Positions 6,865 to 60,649 of a stretch of 64,000 bases of DNA are shown here, piece after piece. Under the pieces are notes generated by a model. That model did not search any database. It was not told the origin of the DNA and saw only the letters and a program-made list of their open reading frames with translations. Each line of letters opens with the position of its first letter. Position 1 is the first letter of the stretch. The position numbers were made by a program, and so were the translations under genes. Origin of the DNA: Eledone cirrhosa (Eukaryota). Location of the stretch: positions 253,146,001-253,210,000 of the forward strand of contig OZ024742.1 of the NCBI GenBank assembly GCA_964016885.1, written 5' to 3'.

Positions 6865-7326
6865 GTTTATTTCAAGTTTCACTTGAAGAGGAAAATCAGG
6901 GTGGAGAGGCAAGTGCTGCTTTCTAGCAAGTTTGTTGAAAGGTGGGTGAATGTAGTGAGAATGGTCTGAGTGAACGGGACCGCTCTGAATATACGCCTGT
7001 ATTTTGAGAAATGGAAAAATTGAGAGAGGGCGCTTGCCCTGGTGGTCAGGGTGGCCGTGGTCTTTTGTGTGGTTTTCGCCACGAGTAACCCTCGGAGGTT
7101 TCTCCCCTATTGGGGAATTTTAATAGTTTCAATTTTCATTTTTATTGTTTATATATATATATATGTTTCTATGTCTTTTTCTTATTCTTTTCTTATATAA
7201 ATAATAAAAATCTTTACACGCACAAAACCCACATCGTACCGTCTTATACCGTCCTGTCGTCTGTAATGTTTTTATTGATGTCAGCCCTTGTGGCCAATAA
7301 AGAAATCATTATTATTATTATTATTA
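6865..7326 (+). mobile_element. 3' end of an L1/Tx1-clade LINE (ORF2 C-terminus plus 3'UTR)
   Basis: Encodes FKFHLKRKIRVERQVL..KFVERWVNV; ends gcccttgtggccaataaagaaa, matching the 3' end of the Tx1 element at ~50085-50110 (minus). Confidence 0.75.
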
Positions 7327-7511
7327 GGGCGGTGGATTGGCAGTATCGGTAGAGGGTCGGACGCCATGCTTTACAGCATAGTTACGTCCCTTTACGATCT
7401 GAGTTCAAATCCCGCCGAGGTTGACTTTGCCTTTCATCCTTACGAGGTCGATAAAATAAAGTACCAGTAATGCACTGGATAATTGCTGGCCTTGTGCCTA
7501 AAGTAGAAACA

Positions 7512-7557
<46 letters not shown>
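7327..7557 (+). mobile_element. tRNA-derived SINE, family A, (ATT)n tail
   Basis: A-box-like tggcagtatcgg, B-box gttcaaatcc, central gcctttcatccttacgaggtcgataaaataaagtaccag, (att)n tail; many copies in the window. Confidence 0.9.
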
Positions 7558-7558
<1 letters not shown>

Positions 7559-7561
7559 GTA

Positions 7562-7761
7562 AGGGAGGTGAATTGGCAGTATCGGTAGAGGGTTGGACGC
7601 CATGCTTTCTAGCATAGTTACGTCCCTTTACAGTCTGATTTCAAATCCCGTCGGGGTTAACTTTGCCTTTCATCCTTACGGGGTCGATAAAATAAAGTAC
7701 CAGTAATGTACTGTGTAATTGCTGGCCTTGTGCCTAAAGTAGAAACAATTATTATTATTAT
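7562..7761 (+). mobile_element. SINE family A, tandem second copy
   Basis: Near-identical to 7327-7557 and starts right after its tail. Confidence 0.9.
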
Positions 7762-32615: not shown

Positions 32616-32812
32616 TAACAATACATATATGTATATATGTATATATATAATATTCTATGTCTATATTCACATATATATCGCTATTTCAGAGCATTTATTC
32701 CAATTTCTAATTTCTGCCGGACCGGCAACCGCTCTTTCAAACCAGTTCCTGTACACAGCTAAGTATTCTATAAGTCTCTAGCTGTGTCATTCTCGATAAA
32801 AGCACTGGATAT

Positions 32813-32855
32813 GTAGTCCTGATGATTTCTAACAAGAATGAAACGCGTAGATTAC
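32813..32855 (+). ncRNA. Minimal type I hammerhead ribozyme
   Basis: gtagtc-CTGATGA-tttctaacaagaat-GAAA-cgcg-TA-gattac; stem I gtagtc/gattac extended by a 16-bp helix attctcgataaaagca/tgcttttatcgagaat; palindromic stem III. Confidence 0.9.
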
Positions 32856-33122
32856 TTCCCTTGCTTTTATCGAGAATCTAATTGTAATACGTGACGTATT
32901 CTATTCTATAGCGATTAGGTCTTCAAAATGTTTATTATAAACATACAGAATATTTTCGAATATTCTATGTCTATATTCACATATATATCGCTATTTCAGA
33001 GCATTTATTCCAATTTCTAATTTCTGCCGGACCGGCAACCGCTCTTTCAAACCAGTTCCTGTACACAGCTAAGTATTCTATAAGTCTCTAGCTGTGTCAT
33101 TCTCGATAAAAGCACTGGATAT

Positions 33123-33165
33123 GTAGTCCTGATGATTTCTAACAAGAATGAAACGCGTAGATTAC
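33123..33165 (+). ncRNA. Minimal type I hammerhead ribozyme (second unit)
   Basis: Identical to 32813-32855, shifted by 310 bp. Confidence 0.9.
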
Positions 33166-33367
33166 TTCCCTTGCTTTTATCGAGAATCTAATTGTAATAC
33201 GTGACGTATTCTATTCTATAGCGATTAGGTCTTCAAAATGTTTATTATAAACATACAGAATATTTTCGAATATTCTATGTCTATATATATATATATGTTT
33301 ATCCCAGGTTCAATTAGGGGTAACCACAGTAAGTAAGGTACTCAATACATAGCATAGTATAAATATT

Positions 33368-33450
33368 TAATATAGAAATGGCTTCTACAGGACTAGATGA
33401 TTTCCTTCGAATGAAACGGTTCTAGTCCTATAGAAGCCATTTCTATATTA
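33368..33450 (+). repeat. 30-bp-arm hairpin enclosing a hammerhead-like core remnant
   Basis: taatatagaaatggcttctacaggactaga / tctagtcctatagaagccatttctatatta (1 mismatch) around (GA)TGA-tttccttcgaat-GAAA-cggt-TC. Confidence 0.7.
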
Positions 33451-34256
33451 TATATATATTTAAATTGGCACTACTGATGCCACAATAAAATACACTTAGC
33501 CCACACTGTAAAGTGATAGTACTGATACCATGGTAAATGGACCCAGGCCACTCTGTAAAATGGTAGTGCTGGGGTCACAAGAAAGCTCTCAGTTCACCTT
33601 GTTATATGCTAATGGCAGTGTTACAATAAAATGCACCTGATACATGCTATGAAGAGGTTGTTGTTAGGAAGAGCAGCCAGTCAGAAACCTCACTAGAATG
33701 GAATGTATGAGTGAGATGTAGTCATCTGACTTGTCTGACATCAGAATGTAACAACCCACCTAACCTTTGCAAGTATGGAAAATAGAAATAAATTATTGAT
33801 ATACATACTCATAGAGAGAGAGAGAATGAGGTAGAGAAAAATGTGCTGCTATAGTGTTTAAAATATTTAAGTGAAACATATTTACTTTACCTCTCTTTGT
33901 ACATGTGTGTGTGCACAGAGTGAAAGAGAGAGGGAGAGGGAGTGATATATATATATATATATATATAGACAGAGAGAGAGAGAGAGAGAGATGCTATGGA
34001 GGTAGTACATTATACAAAGGGGATTTTGAAGTCATTTATTAGGAAGTAATTGTATTTTTTCTTCTGTGCTTAAATAAGCACTTTCTCTGTTACTATGACT
34101 GTTTTAGCTCTGCAACATCCATTTCCCGCGCTACATAGATATTTAACAAGTAAGGTGTTAAAGAAAACAATAGAAAGAATATTGAATATATGAAATGAAG
34201 ATTAGGTTCACAATATCTTTTGTTGTTGAAAATACTGTGTACCTAAAAATCATTAA

Positions 34257-38767: not shown

Positions 38768-41700
38768 TGCAGTATCGTAAAAGAGAATAGAGAGAAGAGG
38801 TATAAAGAGGTGCGATACAGAATATTACATGCCAAAAGCGGGTGCGTAAGTGTTCGATGCCTGGGTTATCAAGGTTAAATATTAGAGAAAATTAATATTT
38901 AGTGTACAGGATTAAGCAGAGCGGTGATAGGCAAAATAATTAATGAAAGAGTTACAAGCCATTAAATCATATCTTTATAAAGCTCTTACACATGTTTTGC
39001 CCAATGGGGTTCGTCTGAGGCAGATATTAAGGCAAAGTTTTTAATTAAATACCCTGTTCGGGTAAAATAATAATTTAACATCAGAATGCATATTACATAT
39101 ATGTTGTTAAGTATAGAAAAATGGTGGAAAGATGTTAGTATGCTAAGGGAGGTAATTACCGGTGCTGGTATAATGTTTCTTCTCAAACTAATGACCGCTA
39201 CCGGCTTAGTAAGAAATTTTATTTATTATTTAAAAGGAATTAACGTAAGTAGGGTTGGTCAACTCAATGTAATGAGGCGGTGTTAAGGTGTGAGTATGAA
39301 TTATTAGTAAAGTCATTAAAGACTATACACAGGTTTAACTAGTGCAATGTGGCAAGTTCGGTGTGAGTTTGAAGGTCTAGAAAGGTAAAGTCACTTTAGA
39401 TAGAATTTGTATATTTATATGATCAGTTGTCTAAGAAATAGCTTGGGTATAAGCGGCGGTTCTGTAAAATTACCCAAAGATCGGTCTGACCGTGTGGATG
39501 AATATAGCAGGGTAGGCCCAGCTGAATATATGCAGTGCAGCTTCCTGGAGGGAAAACAGAGGGTGGATGATGGTGTTGTTCCAAGTTGTTTAATGGTAAG
39601 TCAACCGCCGGTAAGTCAGGCCAGAGTGTGGTGTTGAGAGCATCAGGTGTTATGGTGGTTATGTAGTTGTTGGGGTCCATCTATAGAAAGATTGTTGCAG
39701 TCGATGGCCGCAATTGATAACAGTTTCAGCCTGACTATTCATGAGGTCCAGGGGTGCTTGCACTATATAATATAGTTCCATCAGGCAGAGTTGGCAGCTT
39801 TTTAAAAAATTGTATGTTGTTGTTTGGTTCACAATTTCCCAATGAGTGGTGAAGCTAATGTTAGTGTCATTTAACTGGGTGATATAATTAGCGAGAGAGG
39901 TAGAGTATCTAAGCTTCCTATTCCTAAAAGAGTGGAGATGTGCCCGAAATCTTGTCTTGAACGCTCCAGAAGTAGCTCCTATGTAAGACTTAACACTATT
40001 ATGACTAGTAACCGTGCATCTATAGATAATATTTTTAGTCAAGCAGTAGCCTCGGAGTGGACAGCCCACAGGGTTACGACAATTGCAATGGTTTTTTGTT
40101 GTCACCTCTAAGGTGGTGAGTGTTGGTGTTAATTGTATTGTTATTATTACCACCATCACCATAGCTACCATAGTTGTGGTTGGCATTATTATCGCTATAA
40201 ACATGCAAAATGGTGCCATTCCCACCTCTCATGCTATAGCGTCTTCTACAGCCATTGTTAGAGCTGCTATGGTTTCTAACCGTGTCGTCGGTCACACTAT
40301 TGGTGCTGCAGTTAGTTTCTACTATGATGCTATTGTGTAATCTACTGCTAATACTAAGGTACCTGTTCTGGTTACTACTATCGTTATCGTGCAGGGCGAG
40401 AGAACTGTTAAGGTTAACTGAGTTGTCATATTCACTAAAATTCTTATTACTAGCATGTTGTATTCTAGTGAGCTTGCTGTGGTTACTTATTGCTATGAGG
40501 TCGGCTAGATTAGGTGTAGTGGAATAGGAGATTTTTAAGTTATTCTTATTGAGGATTTTTCTGTATCTGTGGTTTGGTGGAAAGTTCCTCTCTAAGGTGT
40601 CAAAAAAGATACTGGGTAACTTGGAGGCCACACTCCGAGAGTAGAGGGATGGAACCATAGGACATTACGGTGGCGATTCTGCGTAGTTCTAGGGTTACTA
40701 CGGGTTTTATTGCCTTAGTAGGTGCCCCTATCATGGCTATAGGGCTGCTGTATAATGTGTGCTCTGTTGGCATTATGCCTGAGTGCACAGACACCCCCAG
40801 TACGGCAGTTTAGGGTTACCCTAGGCGGGTTATAAGGTGTAGGTAACAAACTGTCACCTTTATTAAGCTCGTAAGCGGGGAATAATTCCAGTAGGCTGCA
40901 GTTATTACTATAATCAGCCGGACCATGATGGTGTGGGTATGGTAATATACCCGTCCCGCTAGCTTTATGGTTAAGATGCGGGCCGTAGCCAGTGATATTA
41001 TTAACTCTTCTAATACTTTTTATGCTTGTAGGGCCGCTGTGGATTTGGTTATAGGTATGGCTCGCTATAACACTGTTCCTACACGAGGGGGGCTTTATAG
41101 AGCCTGCGTCGTGGAGGTATGAAATTTTGCTGTTATAACCTGAATCAGCCAATGCCTTGTTATAATAATCAGCAGTTTGGCTGAAGAGGTCTTCATTAGC
41201 AGAAAGCCTCGAGATTCTATGTGAGATGCTATACACAATAGAGTTGAGCATAGATTTAGGGTGGTTAGAAGCATAGTTGATGTAGGAAAGGACCTCACCA
41301 GGCTTGTGGTATGGTCTGTATAAGCCGGTACCTAATTATAATGTAACATCTAAGAAAATAACTATATTATGGTTGTGGTCTATAGTTACAGAGAGGCCTT
41401 ATGATTTAAAGAACTTGTGTATATGTTTATTAAAGGTTTTCTATCCTACGAGGCCTATGGTTCTTTACAGTGAATAGGGCATCGTCCCTATACACACCTC
41501 CTTGTAGCACAATGATCTTGTCTCTAAGTCTGTGCAGGAGGTAAATCCCAGCCATGTCAGTTGCCTGCGCTGAGTCACTTGACCCCATTGTGATATCAAA
41601 GTTATCAGGATGGCTGGTTCTGGTCCAGTAGGAGCCCTCGAAATAAATAATGGTTCTCCGCGCTCAAGCACTATATCTATTTCTTTTTTAGTTAAACTAG

Positions 41701-42532
41701 TGTTAGATCTAGCTAAGATGAGGGCCTTATTTAGGAGTATAGGGGAAATAGAGGCGTAGTAATTGTCTATGTCGAACTGGATAAATTTCAGAGATGCCTT
41801 ATCGGGTAGATCTGTGAACCATTTAATGACCTGGTCGGTATTGTTCCAGAGACGGACCTTAGCTTTACTATTAAGTTCAGGTATTATCCTATCAAGAATC
41901 ACTTTGCTAATTCTACCTATATCTGAAGTGGAGGAGCATATTAATCTTATAGAGGGTCTTTCATTAAAATTATATTTGTGATCCTTAAGAGAAAATTTTG
42001 GTGCCATAGGTACATAAGGGTTAGTGTATTTATCTATATCTAAGCTAGTTACAATGTCTTTGCCTAATCTATTAATGTTGTTTAAAGTGCTACTAGGCAT
42101 TTTCATGTAATTTTTGTTTAATTCATTATAGATGAATTGTCTGTATCTACTTACATTCAACTTATACAAGTTCTTAGTTTTAATAGATGCAATAAAAAGG
42201 TGCCTGTCATTCTTGATCTTAGTGATGAGAGAGTCCGGGGATGTCAGGAACGTATTGCTGCATTTGCGTCTATTCTTAAACTTGATATTTTTGATCATCT
42301 TGAGCAAATCTTCCTTAAATGAGTCCAACAGTGTATTGTGCGGTGGGTTCCGGTAGGTCTTAAAACCGTATTTTTCTTTAGGTACTGGAAGATTATCAGT
42401 ATCCTTATCCAAATGGTAGGCCCTCCATCTGACCCTACGTATAAACGAATTCGTAGTGGAAATGAGTTGTTTAAGGTAAGTTTTCTGCTAGGTATAGACT
42501 TGAGAGACATAGGTAACGGTTGTTTCTCCAAC
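38760..42532 (-). mobile_element. Near full-length, frameshifted Naiad-type Penelope-like element
   Basis: EKYGFKT..PP..FKEDLLKMIKNIKF, KTKNLYKL, LKDHK.NF..P.IRLI, FIQFDIDNYYASI; C-terminal CNCRNPVGCPLRGYCLTKNIIY..YIGAT..CQLCLME GIY-YIG; decayed HHR at 38982-39022 in the 3' region. Confidence 0.9.
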
Positions 42533-42565
<33 letters not shown>

Positions 42566-42669
42566 AAAGGTAAACAGAAATAACAACACAATTGGTACAG
42601 TATATGGAAGGTATATATATAATATATGCAAATATATATATATATATATGAAGCATATAGACAATATGC

Positions 42670-42915
42670 TCCCACACCCTCCCACTGCAAAGTGGTCGTG
42701 TAGGCGCCACGGAAAAAAAGCACCCAGCACTCACTGTAAATGAGTTGGTGTTAGGAAGGGCATCCAGCTGTAGAAATCAAGCCAAAATCAGTTCCTGTAT
42801 GAGCTAGGCATGGTCAGCCGACCAGACACTGCCCACAACAGGACAACACGTCTAACCCAGGCTAGCATTGAAGAACGGACGTAAAACGGACGTAAAACGG
42901 TGATGATGATGATAT
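42670..42915 (+). mobile_element. SINE family-B-related 3' part
   Basis: ccactgcaaagtggtcgtg..ggtgttaggaagggcatccagctgtagaaa..ggacgtaaaacg (gat)n. Confidence 0.8.
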
Positions 42916-43263
42916 AGATGATGATGATATATATGATGATATATATATGTATATATTTGTATATATATATATATATAAATGGAAAAAATTAAATTTCATT
43001 TCTCACTCTTAGTACGGCTAATAAATATGGCTAATAAATACGGCTAATAAATATAAGTATGTATACGTACATACATATATGTATACAGATGTACACTAGT
43101 ATGTATATACATACATACATGCACACATACATATATATATGTACGTATGGGTTTACCGAACATTTATTATAATGCTCGGTTTGTTTGTAAACAAACAGCC
43201 CGAATTAGAGCCATACAGTGTTCGGCAACCATCGTTGCCCTTTTGTTCAACACTGACAAAGGA

Positions 43264-43306
43264 ACGATGTACTAGTTTCTAGCTTATTAGCTGCCATCAG
43301 CACCGT
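43264..43306 (-). ncRNA. Minimal type I hammerhead (A9G variant) in a ~300-bp unit between (TA)n tracts
   Basis: Minus: acggtg-CTGATGG-cagctaataagcta-GAAA-ctag-TA-catcgt; extension ctgaca..ggaa/ttcc..tgtcag. Confidence 0.75.
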
Positions 43307-43461
43307 ATACCTTCCTGTCAGTCGATTGAACGTTTGAAAGTATATACTTTCCTTATGCATATTAACGGCTGAGCAGCCTAATTTGCATATAGAGTGATTT
43401 AGTCGGCCGGGTGTACCGAAAAAACGATAAATGGAAAAAATGAATATATATATATATATAC

Positions 43462-43534
<73 letters not shown>

Positions 43535-43674
43535 AATTGCAAACAGAAATAACAAAGCAAATGACACAATACAATGAAGAAATATATTAGTTTTATGCTT
43601 GATTATAGTAGGAAAAGAGTCTTAATCTTTTGAACGCTAGCCCTTCATCAGAAAATAGAATTATATATATATAT

Positions 43675-43945
43675 GTGGTTGGTATTAGGAAGGGCATCCA
43701 GCTGTAGAAAACACGCCAGACAGTCCACGCTGTAATGTGGCCGTGTAGGCAACACGGTAAAAACCTCCCAGCCCCACACTGTAAATGTGGTTGGTGTTAG
43801 GCAGGGCATCCAGCTGTAGAAAACCCGCCAGACAGTCCTATGCGAGCAAGACAACCACTCTTGCCTCAAGTGGGAAAACCCCCATCCAAACCCATGCAAG
43901 CGTGGAACAGGGACGTTAAACGATGATGATGATGATGATGATGAT
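43675..43945 (+). mobile_element. SINE family-B-related 3' part with internal duplication
   Basis: ggaagggcatccagctgtagaaaa twice; tail ccatgcaagcgtggaacagggacgttaaacgatgatg. Confidence 0.8.
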
Positions 43946-44211
43946 ACATATATACACACAAACACATATACATACATATATATTGTTTGTTGTCATGATT
44001 TGGGTGGAGATATGTCTTGTCAATACTGGGAGAGAGAGAGAGAGAGAGAACAGTGATAAAAATACTCTACTTGTATGTAGAGAGCTATATGGAAGAGTAT
44101 ATGATGTCAAGCATTAAATGAGATAAGAACCTTATTCTATCTTTTTCTTCGGTTATACACACACAAACACACACAGACACACAGACACAGAAACACAAAC
44201 ACACACATATA

Positions 44212-44271
<60 letters not shown>

Positions 44272-44984
44272 CTGCCATATTTGTTATGCATGTTATTTTA
44301 TACAGAATTTCTGACACTATTGCTTCATTAGCAATAAAGTACGGTATACAGTGACAGTCTTTGTAATGTTTCTTTTCCCTCTTCTCTTCCTCCTTCATAT
44401 ATTAACTAGAATGTCTTCCTATTTACCGTTACCGAAATGATGTCATTTGTCATTGTTTCATTTGTTTGTTGTTTTGTCTAATGGTGGCATGCTTAATGTT
44501 TCATTTGATCTGAGTTGTTGTTGATTTTATTGTGGTGGCTATTTCTTTCTTTTCTTCTATCTATTTACATTCTATGCTATTAGCTTTACCATTCCATCTT
44601 CAGAATTTTAACTTTGATCCGAAGATGAAGCAGCAGAGTTTCATTCCTTATTTCTCTCTCCCCTAATGATGCAAAGTTGAGAAATTTTCTCTGTTGTCAT
44701 TTTATGCTCTTTCATGTTTCATAAAATTGAATGAAGCATTGGAGATGCTCAGGTGTACAATAGTATTTTAAAAACTTATTACAGTTTATTATTTTTTTCC
44801 TGTGGGAATTGACATACTGTTCATGTTGATTATAGCTGTCTACTTGTTTACTAATCTTTACCTTTTATCCTTTTGTAGTTGATAAATAAATTACGAGTTC
44901 AGTCCAGGAGCATTGGATTGGTGGAATTGTTCAACTGGCTGCTTTGCAATATTTAATCTCATTATGTGAGTTCAAATCTTGCTT

Positions 44985-45275
44985 CCTTCTATCAGAAATT
45001 GTGACTGGCATATAGTATCCACAATGGAAATACCAATAGAAACATAGTTTCCTTGCCCTGATCTGATGATTGACTCCTTTCTTCTGCCAGGAATTGTGAT
45101 GAAAGATAGTATCAGCAATGGAAAAACCAACAGAAACATTGGTATCCTTGACTTAATGTGACAATTGGTTCCTTTCTTCTGCTACCAATTGTGACCAGCA
45201 GATAATATCAGTAATGGAAAGACAAATTGAAGTATTCTTTCCTTTGTCCAACCTGACAGTTGATTCCTTTTCTTT
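44985..45275 (+). repeat. Three diverged tandem 95-bp units; dispersed relatives at ~21215-21335 and ~48250-48320 (minus)
   Basis: aattgtga at 44997, 45092 and 45187; core gatagtatcagcaatggaaa. Confidence 0.8.
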
Positions 45276-45660
45276 TTAGTTAAATGAAGCAAACTTGAGT
45301 AGTCTGCTTCATTGTTCTATGTTCTTTCATGTACCAGAATATTAAATGAAGCATTGGGGATTTTCAGATGCACATTTATATTTTTTAAATGTTTATAATT
45401 TATCATTATGCATCAGATATTTTCAGCAACAAAAAATTATACATTGGAAATTAAACTTTGATATTTGTTGAACTAAGATGTCGAGGCATGGTTTCTCTCC
45501 TCTCCCCAATACATTTGCCCATATTTGCCTTGTTGGGTGAATGTACCTCATTGTAAAGATATCTGGTGGATGGGATCCAAATATGCCTGTTACTTTGCTA
45601 GGCTATCTTATGGACAGACTACCATCTTGCTGCATTATATAATAATTAGAAAACAATTAT

Positions 45661-46026
45661 TTTAATTAAACACACAGTATATTGCCAAATATACTATACA
45701 TACATTCATGTATACATTGCTATTTCAGAGCACTAATACTAATACCTAACTTTTGCTGGACCGGCAACCACTCTGTTTAATCAGCTCCTAAATATTACTG
45801 GAATTCTATAAGAATCTAGCTTCTATAACTCTCGGCACAAGCAAAGGAGTGAGTGGTCTTGATAAATGCTAATAAGCGAGAAACAGGATTGTCGATCACT
45901 TTTCTTTGCTTTTGCCTAGAATAAGTAAGTGACATAGTCACTACTTTAAAACTCATAGCGAATGGTCTCCAAAATGTTTTTAATTAAACATGCAGTATAT
46001 TGCCAAATATACTATACATACATTCA
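45661..46026 (+). mobile_element. 318-bp monomer plus 48-bp terminal redundancy, homolog of the 310-bp retrozyme-like unit
   Basis: taattaaaca..cagtatattgccaaatatactatacatacattca at 45663 and 45981; shares gctatttcagagca, ggaccggcaacc, attctataag and atagcga.tggtct.caaaatgttt with the 32649 unit. Confidence 0.85.
45852..45900 (+). ncRNA. Type I hammerhead ribozyme, U3-A8 core
   Basis: agtggtc-TTGATAA-atgctaataagcga-GAAA-caggattg-TC-gatcact; extension agcaaagg/tctttgct. Confidence 0.85.
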
Positions 46027-46779
46027 CTTATTTTAGTATTTATTTAATAACTATTAATATGTTTTCTTTGCCCCCTTTCTTCTCTTAGCACTTCCTTCCA
46101 TTATTCCCCACCCTTACCTTCCAGTGTCCTTTTTGAGTCTCCCAGTATGCCCAGCAAATTAGTAGCACTCCCTTGAAAATCACTGTTCTCACCTTTTCAA
46201 TACTATGTAACCTGAAACCACCCCTAGTTCTATGATACAAAACTATATATTTTGCAGTGTTTATATTTGTGTAAAAAACCTTCCATCATAATTTTATGTA
46301 AGAACCTTTGTTATGTTATGTTCCCAACATCATCATAATAACAAGCAAGTTAGTTATATTACTAAATCACTCAAAATTCTTGAGTATTTTCAAAATTATA
46401 TGAAAATCATAGGTAGGGTATTTCATTAAAAATGTGGTAATAAACGGTTTAAATTGATTAGCATTTATTAATGCCATTTATTAAACCATATTCTTGTAGT
46501 TTCTTTTAGTTTGTTTAATTGTTTGCTGTTTGAGATCCAGGACTGCTCTTTTTTATTTGTATTAACTGTTTTAATTTGACCATTACCACAATCAGCACAT
46601 TATTATCAACATCTTCATAATCATCAACATCTTCATCATCATCATCATCATCATCATCATTTTATGCCCATGCTCTCTGCTGGAGTAGTTTGGAGAGGTT
46701 GTTATGAGTAGTGAGGCATCTTGTTTATATGTTCCATATTTGCCATGGTGTCTATGACATGATGCATTTCCTAGCACCA

Positions 46780-47180
46780 ACTACTTTACAGAATGTAATA
46801 CTTCACAGAATGTACTGGATGCATTTTATTGTTACATTAGCCAACCACTTTACAGAGTATACTGGGTGCATTTCAACATGGTACCAGCACTACTACTTTA
46901 CACAGTATACTGGATGCATTTTGTCATGATTCCAGTACTAACACTTTACAGAGTGGACTTGGTATATTTTATCATGGCACCAACAGCACCACTTTACAGA
47001 GTGAGGTGGGTGTATTTTGTCATGGCACCAGCACTACCACTTTACTGGGTGGACTTGGTATATTTTATCATGGCACCAACACAACCACTTTACAGAGTGA
47101 GGTGGGTGTATTTTGTCATGGCACCAGCACTGCCACTTCACAGGGGGTGGACTGGGTATATTTTATGATGACACCAGCAA
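46780..47180. repeat. 48-bp minisatellite derived from an internal module of SINE family B
   Basis: Unit tttacagagtgaggtgggtgtattttgtcatggcaccagcactaccac, ~8 copies. Confidence 0.85.
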
Positions 47181-47699
47181 TTTGTCACACGCTTGCCCAC
47201 ACTGAAGTGTTGTCTTTACTCAATATTTTCTCCTTTTGATCACCAACCACCAATCTATCATGGCACCAATGTTCTTTCAACATTTTATAGAAGTGGGTGG
47301 AATGTAAAGATATTTTTTTTCATAATCTTTCTTGTCCATGTATGTTTTATCAGTGTTTCATTGTCAGCTACTTTGATAAATGTCTGTCTTTGTCAGCAAC
47401 TTTCACACAGTTTTACCATCATGAGTTTCGATGCTACCTACTTAGTTTTAAATCAAAATTTATCAGTAAAGGCGTTTTCACTAAAATACAATCTTCCGTT
47501 TCAATTTTTTTACTGAGTTTTATTTTCTGATGAGAAAATACAATAAATAAAATGTGGGGTGGCAGTAAAATATGCAGACTCTTAGGTGTCAGTGAATACG
47601 TCAATGTTTCTTTCTTATACAATTTCTATCTTGGAAATGGTCTGACATTAACAAATATATTTTTTGGAGTAGTAACTCTCAGGCTTCATCATTTTCATC

Positions 47700-48085
47700 A
47701 TCATCATTTCATTTTACAACCGCTTTTTCCCTGCTTGCAAGGGTGGGACGGGAACTGATTCTGGCTTGATTTCTACAGCTGGATGCCCTTCCTAACACCA
47801 ACCTCATTTACAGTGAGTGCTGGGTGCTTTTTTGCTGTGGCACCTCCACGACCACTTTACAGTGTGGGCTGGGTGCTTTTTTGCCATGGCACCTCCACGA
47901 CCACTTTGCAGTGGAATGATAGGGACCCCAGTCCCTATCATCTCATTTCTACAGCTGAGTAAACTGGAGCAATGTGAAATAAAGTGTCTTGCTCAAGGAA
48001 ACAACACATCACCTGGTCTGAGAATTGAACTCACAACCTTTCGATTGCAAGGCCAATGCTCTAACCACTATGCCATGTGCCTCCA
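47700..48085 (-). mobile_element. SINE family B, full length, internal module duplicated
   Basis: Near-identical to 11555-11874 plus one extra internal module. Confidence 0.9.
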
Positions 48086-48591
48086 CTATATCATATATCA
48101 TATTTCTTTGAGTCTTATGTCATCCCTGTTTCTGAAGCTAAACTACAAAAAGGAATAAATGACGTCCTTGTGTATACTATAACCTTAGAGTATAGATATA
48201 GTTTGATCAAGATCCAAGATCTGATTTGCTTACCAAAATAGGGTAGAACTCGTCAAATCAGACCAAGGGAACTCTGTTTCCATTGGTCTTTTCATTGCTG
48301 ATACTATCTACTGGTTACAACTATTGGAGTACAACCATGTCTATGTAAATAATTTTGTACATTTGTAGCATATTATCCATCAAAATGTTAATCTTACACA
48401 CATTTCATGACAGTATTCAGGTTCTCATGACTTTAAAGATGTAAAACTACCTGATGTTTAACATTTTGTATAGAAGCACCCAATGAATGCATTTGCAATC
48501 TTGTCATTTGGAATGAATATTTTTATGTTTAGTAAAAATTTCTGAAAACATGTACATGTACATGTGTAAAACATCTCATAAGTTTACTTCA

Positions 48592-49162
48592 TAACAACAA
48601 CAGCAATAACAGCAGTAACAGCAGCAACAACAACAGTAACAGCAACAACAACAACAACCATCAACAACAATAGACAACAGAACAACAACAGCAACAACAA
48701 CAACCACTGCCAACACCACCACCAACACCAACAACAACAACTACATTAACAAACGACAACAATCACCAAAAACCACTGCCACCACCTCCACCACCACCAA
48801 CAACAACAACATTAACAACAATAACAACAATAACACCACCAACAACAGACAAAAGAGACAGAGAAGGAGAGAGAAGGAGGGAGAGAGAAGGAGAGAGAGA
48901 AATAATGGGGAGCAAGAGATGGAGAGAGAGAGAGATAGAGGGTGAGAGAGTGGGAGAAAGAGAGAGAGATAGAGGGTGAGAGAGTGGGAGAAAGAGAGGG
49001 AGTTAGATATGGAAAGAGAGAGAGGGAGAAGGAGAGAGAGGGAAAAGGAGAGAAAGAGAGAGTGTGTGTGTGTGTGAGGGAGAGAGAGAGTCTGTGTGTG
49101 AGGGAAAGAGAGTGAGAGAGACAAAGAGAAAAGAGAGAGACAAAGAAAAAGAGAGAGGGAGA
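48592..49162. repeat. (CAA)n-type tract followed by a (GA)-rich purine tract
   Basis: Low-complexity sequence. Confidence 0.95.
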
Positions 49163-49764
49163 CTTTCATTGAAAAAAGGAGAAAAGACACTAAGCTGCCA
49201 TTTGAAACAAATTCTTGTCTTATATATCTGAATAGAACTTGTTTCAAATTATTTGCAACACTTAATGATGTTTTGGAGCAAATTATGTTGGCAACAAGTT
49301 ACCTATGTTGGCATACATTCTAACGAAAACTCCTGATAATGTATAAACATGTTTGAAAGAAAAACATTTTTCCAAAAGAATATTTCTTTGCAATAACACC
49401 CCCCCACAAAAAAACCCAACAAAACTAGTAACATCCGTTACCTAGAAAGTTGTTCTTAACGAAGAGGAAAACATTTTATCGAAATTCTGAAATGCTACCA
49501 GCATATTAAAGGTTTCTTATTCTTTCATTGGTAAAAATATGTCAATACCTCTTTAGGATGTAAATTAATTAAATGTGATGTTATCTATGGAGATGAGCTC
49601 TACTTTCCCAACCCCTAGTCTAGCTATAATCCAATTCTTTTAAGTATTAGATTTTATCTTGTGTCAATTTCCACTACTCGTGTCTGGCTAATTGTGGGTA
49701 AACATTACCTTCTTGTAGGTATTAATTAGTAACATAAACATAATTAAAATACATACATACTTAC

Positions 49765-59413: not shown

Positions 59414-60075
59414 GGGCAGTGGATTAGCAGTATCAATAGAACAACGGATAACATGTTTCACAGCAGAGTTATGGCCATTTACGTTCTGAGTTCAAATCCC
59501 GCCGAGGTTAATTTTGCCTTTCATCCTTACGGGGTCGATAAAATAAAGTACCATTAACGTACTGGGGTCGATTTAATCGACTTTCCCCTCCCCCAAAATT
59601 ACTGGCCTTGTACCTAGAGTAAAAATCATTATTATTATTATTAGCATCAGACAACATGCTTTATGGCAAAGAGTTACGGCCCTCTACGTTCTGAGATAAA
59701 ATCCTGCCAAAGTTAGCTTTGCCTTTCATCCTTACAAGGTCAAAAAAATAAAGTACCAGTAACACACTGGGGTTGATTTAATCAACTTTCCCTTCCCCAA
59801 AAATTTGTTAGCCTTGTGCCTAAATCAGAAATGATTATTATTATTATTAGGGTGATGAATTTGCAGTATTGGTAGAGTGTCAGACAACATGCTTTGTGGC
59901 AAATAGTTACATACCTTTAAGTACTGAGTTTAAATCCTACTGAGGCTAGCTTTACCTTTCATCATTACGCAGTTGATTAAATAAAGTACTGGTAATGCAC
60001 TGGGTTTGATCTAATTAATTTTTCCCTTCCCATCAAAATGCTGGTCTTGTGCTAAATCTAGGAAAAATTATTATT
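59414..60075 (+). mobile_element. Three head-to-tail SINE family A copies (longer subtype)
   Basis: Copies at ~59414, ~59645 and ~59849, separated by (att)n tails. Confidence 0.85.
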
Positions 60076-60649
60076 TTTATTGTTGTTGTTGCTTGAACTT
60101 CTGTTTTTGTTTTCTTACATCACAATTAATATAAAAGCTAAAAAGAAAATTCTTAAGCTTTATCATTTCTTCAGTCTAAGCTGTCATTGTCCTGCAGTAA
60201 AACATAAGATTTCAGCTCAAGGGAATGATAAAAGAATTCATCAAACAATATTAAAGAATTTAAATGTGTAGCTGGAAGTTTTATTTATATTTTGCATGTG
60301 AAACAAATGAAGTTTATCAAACACGATACTGAGAAGAAGTGGTCAAATATTCATTAGCCAGTAGTATAACGCAATCTAACAGTTGGGTAATTTGCTTGGC
60401 TGGGGAATTGTATAGAAAAAAAGTGAAGTACTAACAATTGAACAGAAAACACATCGAAAGAGGAGCCAGGAAACAAAAAATCAGCTATTAACTGCCAAGT
60501 TAAACATCAGAAACTGCAAGAGGAGGCACACGAAGTTGAGCATGGCATAGATTCATTATTGTAAAGCATACAATAACTATGGAAATGTAATGAGTAGCAG
60601 GAAACATGAGAAACTTTATTTGGGGCATTATAACTTCTCCTAACACCAG

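Follow-up and report, generated by a model that had tools for sequence, protein, structure and literature searches.

The insertion at positions 45660-46026 of the window (the whole stretch of 64,000 nucleotides of Eledone cirrhosa DNA that was analysed) is probably a 5'-truncated copy of a non-LTR retrozyme with a U3-A8 hammerhead ribozyme, likely pasted by a Neptune-type reverse transcriptase (RT) of Penelope-like elements (PLE) from a likely circular RNA. The U3-A8 swap by itself is an already-known natural variant, described for hammerheads in PMC3088659 and PMC4209133. The part worth following is that insertions of this lineage have fixed ends at two sites, called S1 and S2, with one site per inverted arm.

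The insertion and its family

The best offset over the insertion corresponds to a period of 318 bp. Its start is repeated at its end, as an earlier note on this DNA had stated for ~48 bp; the repeat measures 49 bp, with identity at 47/49 positions (Table 1). This repeat was rejected as a target-site duplication, since the same sequence is present in other copies of the family. The same note considered the 318-bp unit to be homologous to, but diverged from, the 310-bp unit of a dimer located at 32649-33286, and the alignment of both agrees with this (70% identity over 352 columns, E 7e-34). The copy starts at a phase unlike that of the dimer, and its 3' end falls at the same site. It is flanked by AT-rich sequence that is not (TA)n.

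Table 1. Positions and strands of the insertion, its parts and the related elements
Feature	Position	Strand	Description
Whole insertion	45660..46026	+	5'-truncated non-LTR retrozyme (unit of 318 bp, 1.15 units present) with its 3' end at S1 (unit phase 48)
5' copy of the 49-bp redundancy	45660..45708	+	Family sequence, not a target-site duplication
3' copy of the 49-bp redundancy	45978..46026	+	Ends at S1
~35-nt "tail" between S1 (phase ~42-49) and S2 (phase ~80-84)	45709..45744	+	Only internal in the 45660-46026 copy
Extended stem I hairpin around the ribozyme	45830..45921	+	
Type I hammerhead	45852..45900	+	Cleavage predicted from the consensus fold
Young C3-G8 sister retrozyme	32649..33286	+	310-bp unit present 2.06 times; ends 3' at S1, within (TA)n
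Locus L111	3309-6122 of that locus	-	Neptune-like PLE, 938-aa frame; terminal repeats with U3-A8 minimal hammerhead
Locus L112	3488-6019 of that locus	+	Neptune-like PLE, 844-aa frame; terminal repeats with U3-A8 minimal hammerhead

With a GC content of 34.6%, the 318-bp unit is a low-GC sequence in the ~170-400 nt range of non-LTR retrozymes, and it contains one type I hammerhead. It is non-coding, the longest ORF touching the region being of 46 aa, and the RT plus GIY-YIG ORF of an autonomous PLE is absent from the insertion. Relatives of the unit are many and dispersed in the 3.0-Gb genome (58 matches scored from 40 candidates, out of a total of 3401), and tandem copies, also characteristic of retrozymes, are found for the family at many loci, the 45660-46026 copy alone having 1.15 units. 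At two loci (L241 and L239), U3-A8 insertions are tandemly repeated together with their flanks, with a spacing of 1.2-1.5 kb. Other degenerate tandem repeats are present in the window at 44997-45270 (95 bp), 46800-47179 (48 bp), 7308-7761 (236 bp), and 59647-60081 (233 bp).

The copy differs from the family at 16/318 positions (5%); six of these differences affect the stems of the ribozyme, its loop II or the extended stem I, and none affects the core. By comparison, 43 near-full units of the family differ from the majority by 7% on average. On sequence grounds it is an old, decayed insertion, likely inactive and, with one ribozyme and 5% decay, probably a dead end. An identical second copy (L002) was rejected as a sign of recent activity, since it lies within a duplication of at least 10 kb with 99.0-99.9% identity: the region 39767-49654 of the window is found again ~380 kb away in the same contig, as a result of either a recent event or assembly redundancy.

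Hammerhead fold and the 3:8 pair

In the hammerhead, stem I is formed by 45852-58 and 45894-900, stem II by 45867-70 and 45875-78, and a near-palindromic stem III occupies 45883-45892. U3 is at 45859, A8 at 45864, G12 at 45880, A15.1 at 45883, U16.1 at 45892, and C17 at 45893, after which cleavage is predicted. All the core letters (U4, G5, A6, A9, G12, A13, A14, A15.1, U16.1, and H17) are present, with U-A at 3:8. The earlier description of a U3-A8 hammerhead with paired stems is thus correct, but stem II is composed of 4 bp and not 3, and an A.A mismatch that adjoins it at 10.1/11.1 (45866/45879) had passed unremarked. The first pair of stem II is U.G in this copy and C-G in most others. The 10.1-11.1 base pair, usually G-C in type I hammerheads, is unpaired in 79 of 81 U3-A8 rows (A.A in 55, C.A in 22) and paired in 2, the C3-G8 sisters having U.U or A-U. 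Perreault et al. reportedly rejected hits on 10.1/11.1 mispairing.

With the three helices placed around the core and stem I open, 95% of the cells are paired among 28 distinct copies, versus 20-44% when the helices are slid. Stem I is prolonged to a hairpin of ~24 bp (fold z -4.3 versus 200 shuffles) and the alignments show an invariant AA at the start of loop II. The lowest-energy fold (-33.3 kcal/mol) pairs U3-G5 with stem III, the hammerhead fold having -30.9 kcal/mol; in the 318-bp subfamily, this lowest-energy fold pairs 45854-45862 with 45884-45889, that is, the core start with stem III. Such a competing fold could possibly be an off-state of the monomer.

Rfam gave no match at gathering score in the whole window and no hammerhead at 45660-46026 even at E<=10, in agreement with the earlier statement that this class would escape a strict CUGANGA pattern. 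The C3-G8 dimer reaches 19.2 bits on HH9, versus a gathering score of 52. Standard models undercount hammerheads.

Among 26 representatives, 11/16 pairs change on both sides, so that the covariation of the stems across subfamilies that had been proposed is found. The covariation score is 0.443, versus 0.239 for shuffled and at most 0.136 for slid alignments, in controls that leave relatedness in and with one of the 26 rows (L177) coming from another family. Within one subfamily group, 1/15 pairs changes on both sides. All the classes shown have a self-complementary stem III, though its sequence and length vary; such a stem III has been seen in hammerheads acting as dimers (PMC4209133). Since the stems and the self-complementary stem III covary across subfamilies, the alignments point to selection on (dimeric) cleavage. 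The family of L177 (239-295), to which some U3 or C3-A8 pattern matches also belong, is a further hammerhead family, dispersed and C3-G8, whose stem II differs but is likewise closed by an A.A mismatch, and whose stem III is palindromic.

Regarding the 3:8 pair, the 26 representatives have U-A in 17 cases, C-G in nine, and no unpaired state. Exact matches in the flanks of the family itself (n=38) correspond to U3-A8 in 37 cases and U3-G8 in one. With a broader pattern, 13,827 cores were obtained genome-wide: 13,478 are C3-G8, 322 have U3, and 27 are C3-A8, none of the latter being of the 318 type. The first 100 of the 322 U3 cores, counted by eye, comprise 87 U3-A8 and 13 U3-G8 (11 of them from another family). 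Mixed states are rare singletons, nearly all from an unrelated hammerhead family, and the independent variation of U3 and A8 that could have contradicted the earlier note is not what the copies display. Of 151 rows, 144 were parsed, with U3-A8 in 68/73 of one stem-I class and C3-G8 in 56/70 of the other. Between the main U3-A8 subfamily and the others, identity is 68-90%, and a pattern search for a C3-G8 form with 318-type stems gave one match, which belongs to the other class. To judge from these sequences, U3-A8 is fixed in several subfamilies and the sister subfamilies are C3-G8.

The covariation claimed for 3:8 is correct insofar as U3 and A8 go together, but it rests on only one or two events in an unrooted tree. 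In this tree (38 rows, positions 3 and 8 masked, four picked loci yielding no usable row) two double switches are needed, and a single clade of all the C3-G8 rows, with one switch, is not rejected (p-AU 0.30); in a first tree, the 3:8 state was unreadable in 22/76 rows. The change would need one or two double switches, and may have run in either direction. Several divergent U3-A8 subfamilies keep the core and the stems by compensatory change, U3-A8 is also present in hammerheads of two PLE families of the same genome, and PMC3088659 cites reported in vitro activity of this variant. Against these facts, it seems highly improbable that U3-A8 is a crippled or neutral form that hitch-hiked in successful source elements, with the ribozyme unneeded or supplied in trans by C3-G8 relatives, even if such a history would agree with the small number of switches, the unpaired 10.1/11.1, the competing lowest-energy fold, and the C3-G8 nature of the currently abundant family.

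Insertion ends, mobilisation and RNA template

In a survey of loci not picked for length, 161/191 segments end in the S1 or S2 windows, which represent 13% of the unit; these windows were set after the data had been seen, the loci were sampled by short patterns, and U3-A8 subfamilies are pooled with old C3-G8 ones. The strict modes of the 3' ends are phases 49 and 84, ~35 nt apart, and the 45660-46026 copy ends at phase 48. A dinucleotide-repeat flank is present at 117/161 of the S1/S2 ends. A random permutation of both ends was rejected by this count. The earlier note had read the permuted start as a sign of a circular template and had asked for a table of start and end phases: the scattered 5' ends are indeed found, but the 3' termini have two fixed positions, so that the permuted start loses its value as evidence. 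Varying 5' ends together with fixed 3' ends are what 5' truncation during target-primed reverse transcription ordinarily produces.

Both orientations are present at 61/110 loci. Of 62 inverted pairs, 40 combine S1 with S2, three S2 with S2, and none S1 with S1, 19 being unclassifiable; one end of each kind is thus found in 40/43 classifiable pairs. U3-A8 loci alone give 15 S1+S2 pairs, one S2+S2, none S1+S1, and seven others. In the young 310-bp family, for which 14 insertions were fetched, all of the 11 two-armed ones have one end of each kind. Assembled contigs of two runs from one sample, possibly the sample of the assembly itself, confirm the sequence of the ribozyme and show, at S1, loose ends in (TA)n; an exact-pattern search of metagenome and viral contigs gave no match.

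PLE insertions are known to show 5' truncation, an inverted arm, a tail of 30-40 bp at one end and a bias towards microsatellites (PMC8557442), and the tail is as long as the stretch that separates two internal sites of RT initiation (PMC11167929). The insertions of the lineage studied here share the inverted 5' arms, the two 3' ends with a ~35-nt tail and the AT-rich or microsatellite targets. Fixed two-site ends and inverted arms are the PLE "tail" signature, and by this analogy it is likely that a Penelope-type RT mobilises the retrozymes. This signature at retrozyme ends leads to exact predictions about start sites, target and template.

Candidate enzymes are present in the same genome, where a GIY-YIG search gave 10,597 candidates, with 150 matches scored. 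The 938-aa frame of L111 contains an RT (E 2e-6, just below the Pfam cut-off), a CX4CxxC linker, plus GIY-YIG at its C terminus, and is Neptune-like. This element has two (TA)n-flanked ends and inverted arms, the ends being 68 nt apart and not 35; two other PLE families have tails of ~30 nt (few copies). A PLE family of the L102 type carries another U3-A8 core. In its (TA)n tail, the 310-bp dimer carries a small, separate fold-back element (33290-33465) whose hammerhead-like centre is decayed; relatives of this element with intact cores and inverted arms are found at L116, L120 and L123.

With respect to the RNA template, 95/161 segments read through the cleavage site, which indicates that the template is not merely a cut linear monomer. 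Among young insertions with at least three full units, all units are identical in 7/10, and up to 14 units are found over both arms; eight different units occur among 12 young insertions. Clustering of 5' ends at the cleavage site was rejected as proof of cleavage in vivo, since the young family shows no excess (3 versus 2 at a control phase, both low counts). In the old family, 5' ends are denser just 3' of the cleavage site and four first-round 5' ends fall at that site +/-1, a position confounded with the hairpin; some linear cleaved template is possible. The identical multi-unit young insertions and the lack of ends at the cleavage site favour a circle, so that a circular RNA template is likely on sequence evidence.

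The main rival reading replaces the circle by a linear multimer, uncleaved and derived by transcription from source units in tandem, that a PLE would mobilise; the 1.15 units would then reflect 5' truncation. Uncleaved RNA was the prevailing substrate of the PLE in vitro (PMC11167929), the fixed 3' ends, the truncation and the segments running past the cleavage site would fit equally well, and identical units are also expected from homogeneous source arrays. We consider it unlikely, however, because truncation would shorten the arrays at every round, yet young arms reach ~10 units, and because the long-kept core, stems and palindromic stem III would require cleavage to have a role in the cycle. 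Of nine frog retrozymes that had been predicted, eight showed no cleavage (10.64898/2026.07.22.740005).

The length of the copy would say nothing about the template if it were the remnant of a longer array collapsed by inter-unit recombination. Sampled U3-A8 copies do have at most ~2.1 units, fewer than the young sister insertions, but many old segments are shorter than one unit (median 188-222 nt), as truncation predicts, and no direct trace of collapse was found. Such an origin, which would leave the assignments of family and mobiliser unchanged, is very improbable.

According to the preferred reading, in which a PLE enzyme copies a circle, tandem source copies would be transcribed and cut by paired (dimeric) hammerheads and the cut RNA would be ligated to 318-nt circles. 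A PLE protein would nick AT-rich DNA and reverse transcription would start inside the RNA at S1 or S2, or at both in two-armed insertions, circling round the RNA past the cleavage site until fall-off, which at 45660-46026 would have happened after 1.15 turns. A more specific version is put forward tentatively, as a possibility that falls a little short of probable: the PLE would prime both strands and start at two internal sites of one circle, giving inverted rolling-circle arms, one of them tailed, and 3:8 would have switched on two occasions, the non-canonical closure at 10.1/11.1 differing on each (A.A or C.A beside U3-A8, U.U or A-U beside C3-G8), rendering a natural series of active core variants missed by Rfam.

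Comparison with known systems

The 318-bp family resembles the non-LTR retrozymes of metazoans such as coral, mussel and axolotl (PMC7229834) and those of frogs and other vertebrates (10.64898/2026.07.22.740005) in its low-GC, non-coding unit of ~300 bp with one type I hammerhead. The occurrence of monomers to tandem arrays, the joint presence with PLEs as well as the short palindromic stem III are also shared with metazoan retrozymes, from which the family differs by its U3-A8 core and its unpaired 10.1/11.1. In both works, the autonomous mover and the template of animal retrozymes are stated to be open, and the support for a link to PLEs consists of co-occurrence and pLTR homology. The latter is reported for 21 frog families (10.64898/2026.07.22.740005), whereas no pLTR homologous to the retrozyme unit was found in 35 PLE loci, a small part of the 10,597 candidates. 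Two-site fixed 3' ends, one per inverted arm, were not found described in the accessible text of the retrozyme literature searched, including the main texts of PMC7229834 and 10.64898/2026.07.22.740005, whose supplements may bear on them; no account of inverted arms was seen in the text of these two works either, and a literature search for a prior report in cephalopods found nothing relevant.

The same compensatory core swap is present in the minimal hammerheads of the Schistosoma mansoni PLE Cercyon (PMC4209133) and in the variants of PMC3088659. Hammerheads of the Cercyon type were missed by a C3-G8 descriptor and amount to about 1,300 matches (PMC4209133). As described in these sources, those motifs are minimal, tied to repeats of autonomous PLEs and usually have G10.1-C11.1. 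In contrast, the U3-A8 of the 318-bp family belongs to a retrozyme unit whose stem I is long, in a lineage that also includes C3-G8 sister subfamilies. This lineage would thus provide matched natural U3-A8 and C3-G8 ribozymes, as far as their sequences indicate.

Finally, 5' truncation, an inverted 5' arm, a tail of 30-40 bp, two fixed 3' ends and AT-rich or microsatellite targets are shared with the Poseidon PAc element (PMC11167929) and with Neptune and Naiad (PMC8557442). Unlike these PLEs, the 318-bp family has no ORF, and it is constituted by a cyclically repeated unit with the hammerhead located ~130-170 nt upstream of the 3' ends.
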